Part shown: positions 79-38,436 of the stretch, piece by piece | Numbering within the stretch: position 1 is the stretch's first letter | Layout: each line of letters begins with the position of its first letter | NCBI RefSeq assembly: GCF_006345805.1 | Contig: NW_021834958.1 | Location: 1 to 45,353 of the forward strand | DNA: 45,353 nt | From: Octopus sinensis | Taxonomy: Eukaryota | Direction: 5' to 3' | The notes under the pieces: model-generated | Told to the model about the DNA's origin: nothing | The model's input: only the letters and a program-made list of their open reading frames with translations | Databases searched by the model: none | Made by a program: the position numbers and the translations under genes

Positions 79-320
79 TTTCTTTATTGGCCACACAGGG
101 CTGCACATAGATGGGACAAGTTAGAAGGTAGAGCTTTTCTTTTGGGGCAAAAAAAATAATAAAATATGGCGTAGGTTTTCGATCAAAAGGGATCGTAAAA
201 GTGAAAAAAGAACAAAAAAAAGAAAAAAAAGAAAAAAAGGAAAAAAGGGAAAAGGGCCAAAAGAAAGGAAAAATGAAAAAAGAAGACAAAAGAGGAAAAA
301 AGGGGAAGAGGAACAAAAAA
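79..320 (-). mobile_element. 5'-truncated non-LTR retro-insertion (3' UTR only) with 11-bp TSD
   Basis: GTTATAATAAG occurs at 68-78 and 321-331. The minus strand ends ttgtcccatctatgtgcagccctgtgtggccAATAAAgaaa after a T-rich tract. Clade not determinable from this fragment. Confidence 0.7.
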
Positions 321-6130: not shown

Positions 6131-6731
6131 GAAAGGCAAAGTCGACCTCGGCGGAATTTGAACTCAGAACGTAGCAGCAGACGAAATACCTATTTCTTTA
6201 CTACCCACAAGGGGGATAAACACAGAGAGGACAAACAAGGACAGACAAACGGATTAAGTCAATCATATCGACCCCAGTGCGAAGCTGGTATTTAATTTAT
6301 CGACCCCGAAAGGATGAAAGGCAAAGTTGACCTCGGCGAAATTTGAACTCAGAAGGTAACGGCAGACGAAATACCTATTTCTTTACTACCCACAAGGGGG
6401 CTAAACACAGAGGAGACAAACAAAGACAGACAAACGGATTAAGTCAATTATATCGACCCCGAAAGATGAAAGGCAAAGTCGACCTCGGCGGAATTTGAAC
6501 TCAGAAGGTAACGGCAGACGAAATACCTATTTCTTTACTACAACAAGGGGGCTAAACACAGAGAGGACAAACAAAGACAGACAAACGGATTAAGTCAATT
6601 ATATCGACCCCAGTGCGTAACTGGTACTTAATTTATCGACCCCGAAAGGATGAAAGGCAAAGTCGACCTCGGCGGAATTTGAATTCAGAACATAGCGGCA
6701 GACGAAATACCGCTAAGCATTTCGCCCGACG
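6131..6731 (-). mobile_element. Head-to-tail array of four partial SINE family B (B2-tail) units
   Basis: Repeated gaaaggcaaagtcgacctcggcggaatttgaactcagaa; identical junction acgaaatac|ctatttctttac at 6190, 6375 and 6527. Confidence 0.9.
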
Positions 6732-7044
6732 GATATTAATAAAAAATATGTATATCTTTGGCAACTATGCTTTATATGTATGTGTGTATGTTTTAACAAT
6801 GCAGACGAACGTATTAGGTATATCAGTTCTTAGTTATATTTAATGATTTCAGGTGTGTAAACTCAACTAAACAATGATTGTAACTTTATCTTCTGAAAAA
6901 TCTCATTCATTGTCAAACAAACACCACAAAAAAAAAAAAAAAAGAGAAAAGAACTGAAAGAAAAAGCAGCAGATGCGAAATAATTAGGAATATGGCAAAT
7001 GTAATTTGGAAACTGCATGAATAATTAAATAAACATGACATTAC

Positions 7045-7608: not shown

Positions 7609-7777
7609 TAGGAGTGGTTGTGTGGTAAGTAGCTTGCTTACCAACTACATGGTTCCGGGTTCAGTCCCACTGCATGGTACCTTGAGCAAGTTCTTCTACT
7701 AAAGCATCGGGCCGACCAAAGTCTTGTGAGTGGATTTGGTAGACCGAAACTGAAAGAAGCCCGTCATATATATGTAT

Positions 7778-7825
<48 letters not shown>

Positions 7826-8019
7826 GTTTGTGTGTCCCCTCAACACCGCTTGATAACAGATGCTGGTGTGTTTACGTCCGCGTGACTTAGCGGTTCGGCA
7901 AAAGAGACTGATAGAATAAGTACTAGGCTAACAAAGAATAGGTCCTGGGGTCGATTTGGTCGACTAAAGGCAGTGCTCCAGCATGACCACAGTCAAATGC
8001 CTGAAACGAGTAAAAGAGA
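7609..8019 (+). mobile_element. SINE family A, near full length
   Basis: tRNA-like head (A box tggttgtgtgg, B box ggttcagtccc), ccttgagcaag core, internal microsatellite, gtaaaagag tail. Confidence 0.9.
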
Positions 8020-8252
8020 TATGGCTATGCATAACGCTTCTCGTTTTTAGCCATGACCTCATCGACATTTTGTTTTTAAATGAAAAGGAAAATGAAGCTT
8101 AAGTGGGAGATGTTGTCAACAAGTAAATAAAGATACGTCTGGTGATCGAAGGGTGGCAGTCGACGCAGGCGATTGACATTTCAAGGGGCTCTTGCATCTC
8201 TGGAATTTCTCAACTGATTCTAGAAATTATCCTCTATTCGGAAGATTGCATA

Positions 8253-8604: not shown

Positions 8605-8900
8605 GGCAAAATGGTTAACACACCGCGCAGAATCGTCAGCATGACGGACATAATCGTTAGCACGCCAGGCAAAATCGTTAGCAAATCGGACATAATCGTT
8701 AGCACGCCACACAGAATCGTTAGCACCCCTAGTGGAATCGTTAGCACACCGGACACAATCGTTAGCACGCCGGACAGAATCGTTAGCAAGTCGGACAGAA
8801 TCGTTAGCACACTGAACAGATTCGCAAGCACGCCACACAGAATCGTTAGTACGCCGGACAGAATCATTATCTCGGGCAGAATCTTTAGCGTGCCGGACAG
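8605..8900 (+). repeat. 21-bp minisatellite (~14 units) derived from the SINE B head
   Basis: Unit acagaatcgttagcacgccgg matches the SINE B 5' end gcagaaacgttagcacgcc; the last unit runs into the SINE body. Confidence 0.9.
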
Positions 8901-9068
8901 ATTGCTTAACAGTATTTTGCACACCTTTACGTTCTGAATTCAAATTCCGTTGAGGTCGACTTTGCCTTTCATTACTTCGGGGTCGAAAATTAAGCTGAGC
9001 ACAGGGGGTCGATGTAATCAATTCACTCCTTCCCGAAATTGCTGACCTCGTGCCAAAATTTGAAACTG
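8875..9068 (+). mobile_element. SINE family B (B1 tail)
   Basis: gttctgaattcaaattccgttgaggtcgactttgcctttc followed by the cgaaattgctgacctcgtgccaaaatttgaaac tail. Confidence 0.85.
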
Positions 9069-9708
9069 ATATCAAAAGATTGGAGACAGGAGTGGGTTAA
9101 AGAACCACAGAAAACAATTAGCGAAAACATGGTACAAGTTACCGAGCCATACTCATCTACAGGTGACAGCTGGGTCTTAAAATTAATATTTCACGGTGAA
9201 TAGAACAGCACAGTTCATACTTCTCACTGGTTTTCAAGGATTAAACTGATAACAGACAATGTCTGTTCAATTATAACTAATTGTAAATGACAATTCTAAA
9301 CCTTTCCCTCAAATCTCTGTTATCTACACGCTAAAATTAAATGAGTCGCTATACATGAAATTAAGTCTACTGTCAAATTAGCTTTGGAAACACCTGCTGC
9401 GGAATTGAATTGGTAATACTGAGGTTGTAATTGTATACCTAGAAAATAGTTGTATACGTCTCGAGATAAAGTTGATTAAGTATGTTGTATGAAATATAGT
9501 AAATGATTAGAAATGCTTTAAACGCATTTACAACGGTTTATCAGATGCTGGTTGCGTCCATGTCGCCTCGAGAGCATACAGATAGCATGTGACATGTTCT
9601 AAGGAATTTTATGCAAAAAAAAAAGCCTGATTTCTTATCGGCAGAATTATTATCATAATTAATACGATAATAATTATGACAAAAATTACTATTATTATGG
9701 TAATTCAA

Positions 9709-10050
9709 GGCGGCGAAGTGGAGGAGTCGTTAGCACGCCGAACGCAGTCCTTAGCGGCATTCCATCCGTGTTTATGTTCTGAGTTCAAATTCCACCGTGG
9801 TCGACTTTGCCTTTCATCCTTTCGGGGTCGATAAATTAAGTACCAGTGACGCACTGGGGTCGATATAATCGACTTAATCCGTTTGTCTGTCCTTGTTTGC
9901 CCTCTCTGTGTTTGGCCCCTTGAGGGTAGTAAAGAAATAGGCATTCCATCCGTGTTTACGTTCTGAGTTCAAATTCCACTGAGGTCGACTTCGCGTTTCG
10001 TCTTTTCGAGGCCGATAAAATAAGTACCAGTTGAGCGCTGTAATCGGCTG
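9709..10050 (+). mobile_element. Nested SINE B: B2-tail unit inside a B1-type host
   Basis: gcattccatccgtgttta at 9757-9774 and again at 9941-9958, directly after the B2 tail aaagaaatag. Confidence 0.85.
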
Positions 10051-11427: not shown

Positions 11428-11589
11428 GGCGCAGGAGTGGCTGTGTGGTAAGTAGCTTGCTTACCAACCACATGGTTCTGGGTTCAGTTCCACTGCGTGG
11501 AACCTTGGGCAAGTGTCTTCTACTATAGCCTCGGGCCGACAAAAGCCTTGTGAGTGGATTTGATAGACGGAAACTGAAAGAAGCCCGTC

Positions 11590-11630
<41 letters not shown>

Positions 11631-11774
11631 ATTATATAGAAGGAGCTTCTACAGGACTAGAACTGTTTCATTCAAGAGAAATCTTCAGGAAGCTAGTTAA
11701 CAAGAATTGTATTGGCATTTATACATTTAGGCAGGTTTAAAGGGGTGTTGGTGGGGGACACACAAAGACACGCA

Positions 11775-11826
<52 letters not shown>

Positions 11827-12052
11827 TGCGTGTGTTTGTGTGTCCGTGTTTGTCCCCCTAGCATTGCTTGACAACCGATGCTGGTGTGTTTATGTCCCCG
11901 TTACTTAGCAGTTCGGCAAAAGAGACCGATAGAATAAGTACTGGGCTTACAAAAGAATAAGTCCCGGGGTCGAGTTGCTCGATTAAAGGCGGTGCTCCAG
12001 CATGGCCGCAGTCAAATGACTGAAACAAGTAAAAGAGTAAAAGAGTAAGAGT
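11428..12052 (+). mobile_element. SINE family A, full length, interrupted in its internal (TA)n
   Basis: Head ggcgcaggagtggctgtgtggtaag and tail gtaaaagagtaaaagag; foreign segment at ~11627-11760. Confidence 0.92.
11644..11694 (-). ncRNA. Type I hammerhead ribozyme fold
   Basis: Minus strand: AGCUUC CUGAAGA U UUC-ucuu-GAA U GAAA CAG-uucuaguc-CUG UA GAAGCU. Stems I, II and III pair; GUA cleavage triplet. Confidence 0.8.
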
Positions 12053-12115
12053 AATGTCAATATTGTTTCAATTTAAATGCAATTTTATTGAAACAATGCA
12101 GGAATTTTAACAATG

Positions 12116-12326: not shown

Positions 12327-12349
12327 TTAGTTGGAATTTTAACAATAAT

Positions 12350-13002
12350 AATCCTTTCTACTATAGGCACAAGACCTGACATTTTTGGGGAGGTGGATGG
12401 TTGGGAGTAGTCGATTTCATCGGCCTCAGTACGCAACTGGTATTCAATTTTCGACCCCGGAAGGATGAAAGGCAAAGTCGACCTCGGTGGAATTTGAACT
12501 CAGAACGTAAAGACAGACGAAATACCTACTTCTATACTACCCACAAGGGGCTAAACACAGAGAGGAGAAACAAGGACAGACATACGGATTAAGTCGATTA
12601 TATCGACTCCAGCGCGTAACTGGTAATTATTTAATCGACCCCGAAAGGATGAAAGGCAAAGTCGACCTTGGCGGAATTTGAACTCAGAACATAACGGCAG
12701 ACGAAATACTGCTAAGCATTTCGTCCGGCGCGCTAACGTTTCTGCCAGCTCGCCGACAGACGAAATACCTATTTCTTTATTGCCCACAAGGGGCTAAACA
12801 TAGAGGGGACAAACAAGGACAGACAAACGGATGAAGTCGATTATATCGACCCCCCAGTACGCAGCTGGTATTTAATTTATCGACCCTGAAAGGATGAAAG
12901 GCAAAGTCGACCTCGGTGTAATTTGAACTCAGAACGTAGCGGCAGACGAAATACTGCTAAGCAATTCACTGGGCGTGCTAACGTTTCTGCCAGCTCGCCG
13001 CC
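12350..13002 (-). mobile_element. Triple nested SINE B (two B2-tail units plus host remainder)
   Basis: Unit 12526-12754 is flanked by direct repeats gacagacgaaatac at 12512-12525 and 12755-12768. Confidence 0.9.
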
Positions 13003-13033
13003 TTAATGATAACAATAATAATATATGCATTTA

Positions 13034-13245
13034 GGCGGCGATCTGACCAAATAGATAGCGTGCCGGGGAAGATGCTTAGCGGCACTTTGTCCATCTTTAC
13101 TTCCTATTTTGAAATTCTGCAGCAGTCGATTTTGTCTTTCATCCTTTCAGGGTCGATAAAGTAAGTACCATTTGGGCACTGGGGTCACTGCAGTCGACTT
13201 AACCCATCCCCTGAAATGCTGGCTTGTTGATACAATTTGAAAGCA
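13034..13245 (+). mobile_element. SINE family B (B1 tail), diverged
   Basis: ggcggcga head, ctttcatcctttcagggtcgataaagtaagtacca core and B1 tail. Confidence 0.8.
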
Positions 13246-13976: not shown

Positions 13977-14369
13977 TCTCTTTACTCTTTACTCTTTTAC
14001 TTGTTTCAGTCATTTGACTGCGGCCATGCTGGAGCACCGCCTTTAGTCGAGCAAATCGACCCCGGGACTTATTCTCCGCAAGCCCAGTACTTATTCTATC
14101 GGTCTCCTTTGTCGAACCGCTAAGTGACGAGGACGTAAACACGCCAAGCAATGCTACGAGGACAAACACACACACATACACACATATATATATATATACA
14201 TATATACGACAGGCTTCTTTCAGTTTCCGTCTACCAAATCCACTCACAAGGCATTGGTCGGCCCGGGGCTATAGCAGAAGACACTTGCCCAAGATGCCAC
14301 GCAGCGGGACTGAACCCGGAACCATGTGGTTGGTTAGCAAGCTACTTATCACACAGCCACTCCTGCGCC
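13977..14369 (-). mobile_element. SINE family A, full length
   Basis: Reverse complement of family A; tatgat on both flanks (13971-13976, 14370-14375). Confidence 0.92.
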
Positions 14370-15201
14370 TATGATATATTAAATTTTTAAAAAACTTTTA
14401 CCCAATTTTACAAGATTATCTGAGAGAAAATGTTTAGATTGAAACAGTAACCAAGAAATTCCAAACTGAGTGGATTAACCATACGGCCCCTAGTTGAGCC
14501 CACAAATAGTTCATTAAATTTATCGTGTTTTCTACTTTACTAACGATAATGAAATACGTAGCGTGGGACCTTTTTTCTGGATGCAGATGCACGAATTCCT
14601 GACTTCAATTTAGTCTCTGTTATTTGTAGGATAAGTGGATATTTCGAAATCTATTAAATATTTGTTAAAAATACATACCAAAAAAAATATATAAGAAAGT
14701 AAAAATGTAATAAGAATATTAAAAAAAACCCCCAAAATACCACTGTTTTTTTTTTTTCATTCTTGAATGGCGCGAGAAATCAGATTTCGTTTCGACTTTT
14801 CTGTGACTGTTGCATGCAAATATATTTTGTGTTTCAGAATAGTGACACGCAAATCTAAACCGTTTAAATATCAAAACGAAAACATCTCCGTCGCACCCAC
14901 CTCTCTAAAAAGGCAAGAATATTGTCAATAATATGAAAAGCAGAAAGAATCGAAAACTCCCCCCCCCCCCTTATACACACACAGCACAGAAACATACACA
15001 TGAAAGCGATGATATCAAAATCAATGAAGTAAAATGAAAGAAAATAATAATAATAATAATAATATTAGAGCAACAATAAGAGCTTTAGAAATTGATGTAA
15101 GAAAATTGTATTTTACACCGAGTTTTGGCTGCGTGTTAACAACGTTGTTTTATTATTCCTTCAGTAATACTATATTTACATGAATACTAATATATGTGTG
15201 G

Positions 15202-22769: not shown

Positions 22770-23313
22770 TTTACAAGTGATCTAAACGGTTAGGTACATC
22801 CCGATCAGCGCAGACGGTGGCAACGGTGCAGGAAATGTTTAATTGAAGCCCACAAAAATCAACATGTCAAACAGCTCGTGAAAGTGGACCAACAAAACAC
22901 ACAATACATACATTGTTGCATAAAGAATTGAATTTTCGTCCATGGAAACCCCATTACGCCCGGAAGTCTAGAATTCCAACAAGTCCAGATCTCACTCCAT
23001 GTGATTTTTACCTGTGGGGTTACACAAAAGGGAGGTGTACAAGACAAACTTCGAACACTCGAGGACTTGGAGAGACGGATCCAGGAGGTTTTCAATGATA
23101 TCCCAAACGACGTCCTTAAGAAGGCTGTTCATTCCTTCCATGGATGTTTGAGGAAACTGGTTGGCGCTACCGGTGCCTACAGGGAAATATGAAGATTTTC
23201 TGTCCTCTGCCCATGTAATAAAGAACATGTATCATTTGCTTAAATAAATTTGTAAAAGAAATATGGATTTTATTAGCAATTTTTAATGCCTACTTACTTT
23301 TCACCCACCCTGT
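22770..23313 (+). mobile_element. Internally deleted Tc1/mariner transposon remnant
   Basis: SPQKST..ARESG..LLHKELNFRPWK joined to SPDLTPCDFYLWGY and LEDLERRIQEVFNDIP; right end ttttcacccaccctg|TA. Confidence 0.8.
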
Positions 23314-28120: not shown

Positions 28121-29244
28121 AATAAAGTCACACATACACTTTAAAATAAAATCCCTTATTTTTCTTCCTAAGAGTAAGGTGACGACAGAATATTAAAATA
28201 GGGGAAAAAATAATAAATAGATAGAAATATGAAAGAAAAAAAAGAATATATAAACACATAAACAATTTCGGAGAAAAAATTCCAATATGAACAAAACTGA
28301 GGGAAGAAAAACAAGCGAAAAACCAAAAAGAAATAAAAAAAAAGAATCATATCAAAATATGATATAAAAATATGATATAATTAAGATGATATCAAAACAA
28401 TAAATTTGATATCATCAACGTCAATAAAACATCAGATAAATCACAAACATTAACAATGATTGACGCTAAAGCAAAAAAAAAAAAAAAGAAAAAAGAAAAA
28501 AATGAAATAGAAAGCGAAAGTAAATAAATGAAATAAAATAACATAAAACAGAGGGAAATAAAATAAAAAAGCAAAATGGCGGCGTAGAAAAAAATGAGAG
28601 ACGAGAATGATATTTCAATACATTCAATCAAATAACCAGAAATACATTGATTTATTGTGTGTTTTTGTTCTTGTTGTTCTCCATAATTCCATTCATTATT
28701 CATAACATGGCTTTGCAGAATCGTCTGTTGTGTTTTAATGGCAACGAAAATGCGCTGAATTTGATGTCGAATCTGATATAGTGATAACTTTATTGAATTT
28801 TGCAATCATTATTATTCTTTATGTATGCGCGGTTTCGAGTATGTGTGTGTGTGTGTGTGTGTAAGTGTGCGTATGTGAGAATGTGTGTGTGTCTGTGTGT
28901 CACAATGTGTGTGATAATATCTTTGTAGCTGTCATTTTTGGTTATTTTTTTTTCAAAGGTCATATATTTTACGTGAATATGAAAAGTTCGTGCCATTTTC
29001 AAACTTCTTAGCTTCTCCTTCACATAGTTGCACGACCTGTTCGGAACAAGATGCGAAATTATCCTCACATCACACAGTCCCGACAAAAGTCAAAGGAAAT
29101 GATATAATTAGATGATGCATTGTTTAACAAATTTGTGTCTAAATGAAAAAAAATATGTTAGGATGATCACGAATGGAACGCCTTTCTCCATAGACATTCT
29201 GGATCATAACTGTTTACCTATATGAAAATATATTTATATGTATA

Positions 29245-29468
29245 GATTTCTTTATTACCCCTAAACATAGAGGGGACAAACGAGGATAGACAAACGGATT
29301 AAGTCGATTATATCGACCCCAGTGCGTAACTGGTACTTAATTTATCGACCCCGAAAGGATGAAAGGCAAAGTCGACCTCGGCGGAATTTGAACTTAGAAC
29401 ATAATGGCAGACGAAATACGGCTACGCATTTCGCCCGGCGTGCTAACGGTTCTGCCTGCTCGCCGCCT
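29245..29468 (-). mobile_element. SINE family B (B2 tail), solo full-length copy with 17-bp TSD
   Basis: atatatttatatgtata at 29228-29244 and 29469-29485. Confidence 0.9.
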
Positions 29469-29487
29469 ATATATTTATATGTATATA

Positions 29488-37967: not shown

Positions 37968-38045
<78 letters not shown>

Positions 38046-38046
<1 letters not shown>

Positions 38047-38362
38047 CAGGCGATCCATTTGCTGTCAACACCCGTTAAAAGGAGGGCTGGGCATGCCGTG
38101 GTTGATGATGCGCAGACACGCGCTGAGACTGCGACATCTCAGGCTCTTCGTAGACGACGGTGAACAGGTGTGGTCGCCGTTTGTGAGGCACGCTTTCCCG
38201 CAGCTCGTCTCCATGACCGAACTGCAGTCGTGGTTCAAAAAGAGGCCGAGGAAGGGCGAATGGCACCGCGAGTGCCGCGTTGCTCTCGAGTTGCAACTCC
38301 GCCGTCCCGGGTCTACCTTGAGCGACTCCATCACAACCCAAGCATTCTATAGGGGATTAGTG
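38046..38362 (+). mobile_element. Tx1/L1-group LINE ORF2 internal fragment
   Basis: GC-rich island translating RRSICCQHPLKGGLGMPWL..LRLRHL..W..F, the P-x-x-GGLG motif found downstream of RT; follows (TCTG)n(TCTA)n. Confidence 0.7.
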
Positions 38363-38436
38363 TCGGCCTTGGCACATTTCCTGTGCCCTTATGTTTAAAA
38401 AGAGGGAGATAAGCACCTCCACCCAGCTAAGCCAAC

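Follow-up and report, generated by a model that had tools for sequence, protein, structure and literature searches.

Introduction

Why should the tail of one short interspersed element (SINE) run repeatedly into the same base inside the head of another copy of its own family? This question is raised by a stretch of 45,353 nucleotides of Octopus sinensis (contig NW_021834958.1), which is referred to at its full length as the window. A preliminary description of it proposed that a sequence-preferring LINE endonuclease mobilises the SINE into sibling SINEs, by which arrays would grow.

Comparable preferences are on record for the Tx1 clade, where Tx1 targets Tx1D, Keno targets U2, and Kibi and Koshi target microsatellites (Kojima, 2015; PMC4494074). 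The crocodilian SINEU-1, -2 and -3 share the target preference of the LINE Tx1-Mar, the target being a Mariner DNA transposon; their target site duplication (TSD) measures 16 bp, tandem copies sandwich it by sequential insertion, and the preference ranges from 13% to 90% by family (PMC4494074). The same source regards an element as sequence-specific when more than 20% of its flanks are of one sequence type. Squamate SINE satellites (PMC10702118) and bivalve tandem SINEs (PMC11481361) have been explained by recombination; in the bivalve richest in them, tandem copies make up about 3% of SINEs. For octopus, the OK, OR1 and OR2 SINEs (Ohshima & Okada, 1994) are cited as CORE-SINEs in PMC4758252 and PMC4824008, and a 2026 repeat annotation gives 13 recently active L1-Tx1 families.

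Results

Structure of the SINE

The family-B SINE of subfamily B2 has a consensus of 233 nt, drawn from 19 full copies in random DNA. It is short, non-coding, dispersed, high in copy number and flanked by TSDs: 104,717 exact 22-nt tails were counted in the genome (G000, 2.72 Gb), and 36 of 59 solo copies carry TSDs of 8-24 nt, versus 1.4 in shuffled pairings. Its 3' terminus is ...AAAGAAATA. Because the base right after the tail of solo copies is the TSD base, the G that adjoins the tail was assigned outside the element; at junctions it is nt 50 of the next head. An A-box-like word at nt 13-23 and a B-box-like word at nt 75-87 are by-eye readings against the box consensus; the head shows no cloverleaf, no tRNA match in ARAGORN and Rfam and no snRNA match in Rfam, and neither head nor tail had a significant folding z-score. 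No T4 terminator is present in the consensus. The B1-type SINE has head and core in common with B2, with differing tails, and is older (13% vs 5% from consensus). The repeat landscape of the window being octopus-like, B2 may be one of the octopus SINEs OK, OR1 or OR2. Three short words of the SINE were absent from two supplement files of PMC4824008.

SINE insertions in the window

The features of the window that bear on the question are as follows.

79-200, minus strand: 3' end of an L1/Tx1-type LINE family (TATC-associated), the last 42 nt resembling the SINE tail
6131-6740, minus strand: second array with three nt-50 junctions, composed of partial head and unit (to 6528), 6527-6376 (internal deletion), 6375-6191 and host remainder 6190-6131
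9707-10033, plus strand: third array, unit 9707-9939 (B2 body and tail), junction 9940, B1-type host remainder
12340-12352, minus strand: outer 13-bp direct repeat, 3' copy, ATT-type, adjoining the B1 tail
12353-12526, minus strand: remainder of the host, a B1-type SINE (like B2 in head and core, unlike it in the tail), nt 50 to 3' end
12512-12526, minus strand: 15-bp TSD copy, 12526 being host nt 50
12527-12754, minus strand: B2 SINE unit 2, nt 6-233, with visible TSD
12755-12769, minus strand: 15-bp TSD copy (host nt 50-64) separating unit 1 from unit 2, identical to 12512-12526
12770-13004, minus strand: B2 SINE unit 1, full length (nt 1-233), first unit of the array
13010-13022, minus strand: 5' copy of the outer 13-bp direct repeat, lying upstream of the unit 1 head
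29245-29468, minus strand: solo B2 copy, G45/C50 head variant, TATA-type target
38045-38368, plus strand: piece of ORF2 from the TATC-associated LINE family of 79-200, located behind (TGTC)n(TATC)n repeats

Exact copies of the tail word number five (junctions 6190, 6375, 6527, 9940 and 12769), every one running into head sequence, and a variant copy stands at 12526, so that all six junctions of the preliminary description are present. They had been placed about 48 nt into the head; one position is indeed used at all six, but it is nt 50, and the boundary G belongs to the next head and not to the tail. A direct repeat around 12527-12754 had been given as 14 bp; it is a TSD that carries the host variant, as had been said, but it measures 15 bp.

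Read along the minus strand, the first array consists of the outer repeat, unit 1, the 15-bp repeat, unit 2, the 15-bp repeat again, the B1-type remainder and the outer repeat. The 15-bp repeat (12512-12526/12755-12769) differs from the own nt 50-64 of both inserted units, and the outer 13-bp repeat (12340-12352/13010-13022) is likely the original TSD of the B1-type host. In the third array a 19-bp variant of the host sequence, itself diverged, is found twice, at 9756-9774 and at 9940-9958, flanking the B2 body as a hidden TSD. The solo copy is bounded by a 17-bp TSD at 29228-29244 and 29469-29485.

Other repeats lie close by. Copies of a second SINE family, family A (about 410 nt), occupy 7610-8020, 11428-12054 and 14020-14372; their interior holds a run of (TA)n/(TG)n, and their end is (AAAAGAGT)n-like. 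Two family-B heads stand head-to-head, 30 bp apart, at 12971-13064 and form a long hairpin; the miRNA models of Rfam that matched there stayed below gathering scores and were set aside as a chance product of this SINE pair. At 8620-8915, tandem units of about 20 bp resembling SINE nt 15-35 directly precede a family-B copy.

Site use in the genome

In the genome, 23,201 of the 104,717 exact tails (22%) run directly into an exact nt 50-60, nearly equally on both strands (11,574 vs 11,627). Among 43 tails in 40 random 10-kb stretches, 14 lie at nt 50, three at nt 17, one elsewhere in a SINE and 25 outside any SINE; about one third of the SINE tails thus lie at nt 50 within a sibling copy. In 60 stretches chosen by the first listed exact tails, 39 of 99 tails are at nt 50 and six at nt 17. 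Both the 22% of exact tails and the 14 of 43 random ones lie above the 20% of flanks that marks sequence-specific elements in PMC4494074. The junction is enriched beyond chance, with 14 junctions at 63 heads versus three at 536 other GGTAT sites of the random stretches (Fisher test, p = 3e-12); per site this means a 23-fold (eight arrays) to 40-fold (14 junctions) preference of nt 50 over other GGTAT words.

A single fixed site had been proposed for the family. It holds insofar as nt 50 is the dominant site within SINEs, but a second one exists at nt 17 (1,996 exact matches, e.g. L031:4157 and L143:1259), which is used chiefly by tails of the GGGC subtype: counted by eye, GGGC tails made up 89 of the first 100 matches listed at nt 17 and three of the first 100 at nt 50. 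The same subtype also takes AGAA sites outside SINEs, where flanks begin mostly with TATA, GGTA or AGAA. Hence nt 50 is a hot spot atop a short general preference for GGTA, TATA and AGAA, and the solo copy at 29245-29468 and the 25 of 43 random tails outside any SINE bear out that the preference is not absolute, as the preliminary description had it. Heterogeneous 3' flanks throughout the genome, which it had considered as counter-evidence, were not found.

A young LINE at the same base

Through a tail-like match at 79-119 of the window, a LINE family was reached that is seated in (TATC)n and counts 7,699 exact tails. As partner of the SINE it was rejected, its copies lying in (TATC)n and none of 30 at nt 50; two further candidate tails (L084, L002) had no ORF upstream. 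When all tails were scanned for non-SINE sequence upstream, a relative of the TATC family was found (L114) whose 3' end runs into SINE nt 50. With a LINE-only query, all 30 best copies, one of them the locus of the query itself, end at nt 50, and 119 of 146 exact tails (82%) are followed by the nt-50 word, so that full LINEs with a related tail do occur at the site, a point that the preliminary description had named for checking. The LINE ends are identical (median 100%), and their flanks agree at a median of 89%, from which it follows that the hosts are different SINE copies; only one of 435 flank pairs is at least 99% alike. The LINE thus sits at the same base in many unrelated hosts, and a truncated copy (L211) does so with a clean TSD of 14-15 bp. 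More than 20% of its flanks are of one type and the insertions are independent of target copying, the properties of a sequence-specific element.

Eight full-length copies measure 5,337-5,360 bp (about 5.35 kb) and are 2-14 substitutions apart. SINE nt 1-65 stand upstream in all eight; in seven of them nt 50-65 on the 5' side do not match the 3' copy, far beyond the age of the LINE, and one pair with a common LINE substitution also has a common variant in the 5' nt 50-65. ORF1 (520 aa) has a zinc knuckle (zf-CCHC, PF00098), ORF2 (1134 aa) an APE endonuclease (PF03372) and a reverse transcriptase (PF00078), and zf-RVT was found in ORF2 of a relative of 55% identity. The nearest solved structure to ORF2 is human L1 ORF2p (E = 2e-41), the sole named animal protein among 58 homologues is the TX1 149-kDa protein at 29% identity, and the ESM Atlas holds only generic APE-RT clusters. 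The LINE likely belongs to the Tx1 clade.

At the level of aligned letters, the 3' tail of the SINE is common to this LINE group, with 39 matches in 48 columns for the nt-50 LINE, 36 of 42 nt for the TATC-associated family and 29 of 30 nt for a third family (L155).

The 5' part of the LINE is present in sequencing runs of 12 studies; the search of sequencing runs listed no RNA runs that contain it. For the truncated copy (L211), four sequencing runs gave no contig across the locus and revealed no empty allele, its joints being indistinguishable from other SINE copies; the best contig over the LINE-SINE junction reached 28 letters on one side where 31 were needed.

Several relatives were observed besides. 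The TATC-inserted L1/Tx1-type family comprises several subfamilies, about 26 of 30 copies (L161-L190, by eye) being followed by TATC units. At L155:1-990 and L116, the third relative, whose tail agrees with the SINE in 29 of 30 nt, ends inside a family-A SINE head, and a B2 copy with a 17-bp TSD lies near the same kind of place in a family-A head. Further members of the group end in (ATT)n runs (L058:7660-8310, L046:7465-7900), and the SINE that hosts one LINE copy has an open frame of 344 codons upstream (L227:253-1284).

Nested insertions and composition of arrays

Host nt 51-62 followed by a new head was matched exactly 108 times, some matches lying in tandem runs, versus eight times for a control site. 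The first 30 of the 108 matches represent 24 independent loci, 15 of which show, by eye, the target, a full insert and the target again; in L093, L094 and L071 an older host (83-85%) contains a younger insert (90-95%) with a TSD of 14-16 bp. TSDs are accordingly present at junctions, as in the 15-bp repeat round 12527-12754, although most arrays are without a visible one. At non-SINE targets the G is present in both TSD copies. Since nested cases with visible TSD make up only about 1% of junctions, insertion is inferred for most arrays. A single outer TSD often flanks an entire array, which is expected also from the host's own insertion.

For the composition of arrays, 41 of 98 were used. Loci chosen by likeness to the window tail were kept; arrays picked by TSD pattern or LINE, with heads of less than 34 of 49, or with units more than 25% diverged or unalignable were left out. 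Adjacent units share a median identity of 89%, units of different arrays 88%, so that arrays hold mostly unrelated units; pairs at least 97% identical amount to 9 of 56 adjacent pairs, to 0.4% between arrays and to 2 of 820 among the last units of different arrays. First and last units show no link across arrays (Mantel p = 0.38), and descent of all arrays from one multimer, which would have spoken against the original proposal, was not seen. In 9 of 9 arrays that end in a B1 unit, this unit is older than the first one; for arrays ending in B2 such an age difference is not significant (13 vs 10, p = 0.40).

In 14 B1-ended arrays, nt 3-49 of the first unit are shifted towards B1 (p = 1e-4 versus solo B2; short of solo B1, p = 0.04), a shift that diverged or partial heads (3 of 14) may inflate, and nt 50-168 are B2. 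First units match the nt 58-65 variants of the last unit in 11 of 54 cases (background 10%), and within the array set head divergence correlated with neither first- nor last-unit divergence. A simple model of hidden TSDs, with host nt 1-65 kept in every array, was rejected, as first units mostly carry insert-type nt 50-66.

Identical inner units occur in L015, L203, L210 and L211. With 9 of 56 adjacent pairs at least 97% identical, a minority of units are later tandem duplications. The homogeneous tandem units of a SINE satellite were not found (median 89%), except in these 9 of 56 pairs and in 65-bp head repeats. The latter are tandem repeats of SINE nt 1-65 alone, with a period of 65-67 bp and up to at least 11 copies (L074-L082), seen also at G000:C7:15322785-15323079, C3430:1378-2207 and C18:40399010-40399169; the repeat unit ends at the same base as the 5' junction of the LINE.

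A head variant and the age of the LINE

The double variant T45G/G50C was found in 33 of 107 B2 heads (31%) and in none of 43 B1 heads. It is younger (4.6% vs 5.8%, p = 0.011) and keeps the 45-50 pair of a hairpin at whose tip the site lies. Such heads are less often first in an array (8 of 33 vs 35 of 66), and their solo copies are mostly in TATA targets. Among the junctions listed, 62 of 100 LINE copies sit in C50 hosts (by eye; p = 8e-6), whereas SINE junctions at C50 number 239 versus 23,201 (99% G), about what is expected from mutation alone.

With 2-14 substitutions per 5.35 kb the LINE postdates the arrays, whose units are 5-6% from consensus, and its tail is of type CAAT, whereas SINE tails at nt-50 junctions are TAGT or TAAT. 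The LINE being younger and favouring C50, most SINE junctions were likely made by an older, G50-requiring relative or with the help of RNA pairing; of the two we consider the relative the probable maker. One pattern for such a relative at nt 50 gave 60 matches in the genome, which resemble mutated SINE tails. The original claim that a LINE endonuclease drives the SINE into its siblings is supported in its substance, though the LINE found here is probably not the one that made most junctions.

Discussion

Proposed mechanism and its alternatives

On the sequences compared here it seems quite probable, with some room for doubt, that a sequence-specific LINE endonuclease steers SINE RNA to nt 50 of older siblings and so builds the arrays. 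This reading brings together the observed site, its enrichment, the TSDs, the presence of the LINE at this base in numerous unrelated hosts and the shared tail, as well as the unrelated units within arrays and the older B1 end units. The endonuclease would cut at nt 50 and prime reverse transcription of SINE RNA into the older sibling, the first nick falling before nt 50 and the second, judging from the length of the TSD, perhaps 15-16 nt downstream. Since the host head and the SINE cDNA are alike in sequence, the 5' end of the cDNA would usually join by homology, which would hide the TSD; alternatively, collapse of a 65-bp direct repeat may hide it. Homology joining or collapse would give head + (50-233)n and rebuild an intact head and target, and a rare non-homologous join would give host(1-65), full insert, TSD and host. 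The mismatch in seven of eight LINE copies at 5' nt 50-65 may fit homology joining of the kind described for R2. In that element, according to work from 2000 and 2004 attributed to Eickbush and to Fujimoto, RNA with upstream target sequence reportedly yields a seamless 5' junction and may replace upstream target DNA. R2 differs in its restriction-like endonuclease and its 28S rDNA target; in the octopus case it is the SINE's targeting of itself that would supply the homology. The same products, and head-only repeats in addition, would result if direct repeats of 65 or 184 bp collapsed after insertion. Several related LINE families with different targets may have served the tail subtypes, one nt 50/GGTA, another nt 17/AGAA, another TATA.

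The specificity might instead lie partly in the RNA, the endonuclease reading only a short word, and the bias for nt 50 and the strict G arising from pairing of tail-readthrough RNA with the nicked target. This would be an addition to nested insertion rather than a full alternative. The SINE consensus has no T4 terminator, so that transcripts must extend beyond the tail; 99% of junctions have G though 31% of heads are C50; and the tail subtype predicts the site, GGGC tails making up 89 of 100 matches listed at nt 17 and 3 of 100 listed at nt 50. However, the LINE, with its fixed 3' end, takes the same base in G50 and C50 hosts, for which recognition at the protein level is needed, and G stands in both TSD copies at non-SINE targets. 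We therefore hold such priming to be unlikely as the source of the preference.

That each array stems from a single event, be it a multimeric master read by Pol III or template jumping of the reverse transcriptase at nt 50, would agree with the one outer TSD that often surrounds a whole array, with first units that usually have their own head and nt 50-65, and with the lack of an age gap where the last unit is B2. It is largely refuted, and we give it little credence, by last units that are unrelated (2 of 820 pairs at least 97% identical; Mantel p = 0.38), by B1 end units that are older in 9 of 9 arrays and go with B1-shifted heads, by nested copies with TSDs and by a LINE seated at that base. 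Unequal crossing over or slippage, the process invoked for the SINE-derived tandem repeats of squamate satellites, can claim the 9 of 56 adjacent pairs at least 97% identical (0.4% between arrays), the identical inner units of four loci and the 65-bp head satellites, and as a secondary process it is supported. As the main cause it is refuted and has a very low probability: in 47 of 56 adjacent pairs the two units resemble each other no more than unrelated copies do, B2 units stand on B1 ends, and a fixed boundary at 23,201 places, with a LINE seated there, is left unexplained. An artefact of long-read consensus in repeats could be suspected from the few arrays with identical units and from the window being a short unplaced contig, yet units that differ by about 11%, TSDs, the fixed boundary, its strand symmetry (11,574 vs 11,627) and the presence of the LINE 5' part in runs of 12 studies make it negligible.

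Beyond steered insertion into siblings, a three-way loop of LINE and SINE with an arms race is conceivable, though as a whole rather doubtful. The Tx1-type LINE might use the SINE that parasitises its machinery as safe harbour and, inserting between the A and B boxes, silence that SINE copy; SINEs at the same base might overwrite and rejuvenate older siblings; a younger SINE subfamily might have escaped through the compensatory T45G/G50C, its hairpin still paired; and the currently active LINE might have re-adapted to favour the escaped C50 form. Built on the C50 counts given above, the arms-race reading is speculative: one double change inherited by many copies amounts to one event.

Relation to known systems

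In the parts of PMC4494074 that describe them, SINEU and Tx1-Mar resemble the octopus system in that the SINE inherits the preference of a Tx1 LINE, the target is an abundant transposon and tandem copies arise sequentially. Unlike there, the target is the SINE's own family, so that insert and host are alike, most TSDs are hidden and every copy provides a new target; and unlike Tx1-Mar, the nt-50 LINE lives in a parasite of its own group. The snRNA-derived head and the Mariner target of SINEU were not found here; the working is similar, without membership. With the Tx1-clade LINEs, as that paper presents them, the nt-50 LINE shares two ORFs, an APE endonuclease and a fixed base in a multicopy target, and its TATC-seated relatives are comparable to Kibi and Koshi in (TC)n/(TTC)n; a SINE head is not among the targets given there for the clade.

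Arrays of self-nesting non-LTR elements have a parallel in Zepp of Chlorella, which is said to insert into existing Zepp copies. Zepp is autonomous, near telomeres and low in copy number, whereas the element treated here is a non-autonomous SINE with more than 100,000 copies. Tandem arrays of SINE parts are also common to the squamate and bivalve cases, as described in the relevant parts of PMC10702118 and PMC11481361; unlike those, the octopus arrays take in a third of the tails, mix subfamilies and share one fixed boundary, at which a LINE also sits.

The full-text literature searched yielded no account of a SINE that targets itself or of a LINE aimed at the head of a SINE, earlier notice in Repbase, Dfam, SINEBase or subscription papers being possible; nor was a description found of a host-parasite loop in which LINE and SINE both insert at SINE nt 50. 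The main text of the 2026 octopus annotation gave no match for 'nested' or 'target'.

Significance

The 'tandem SINEs' of this single genome, numbering in the tens of thousands, become a record of site-specific retrotransposition; in addition, a LINE that is intact and very young is available, with a 16-base target in more than 100,000 copies. As close relatives of this LINE have different targets within one genome, gain and shift of APE specificity become testable, as do 5' joining where the cDNA matches its target and a possible conflict between LINE and SINE over the target as well as the enzyme. Repeat annotation and dating are affected, because the heads of arrays are chimeras of host and insert.
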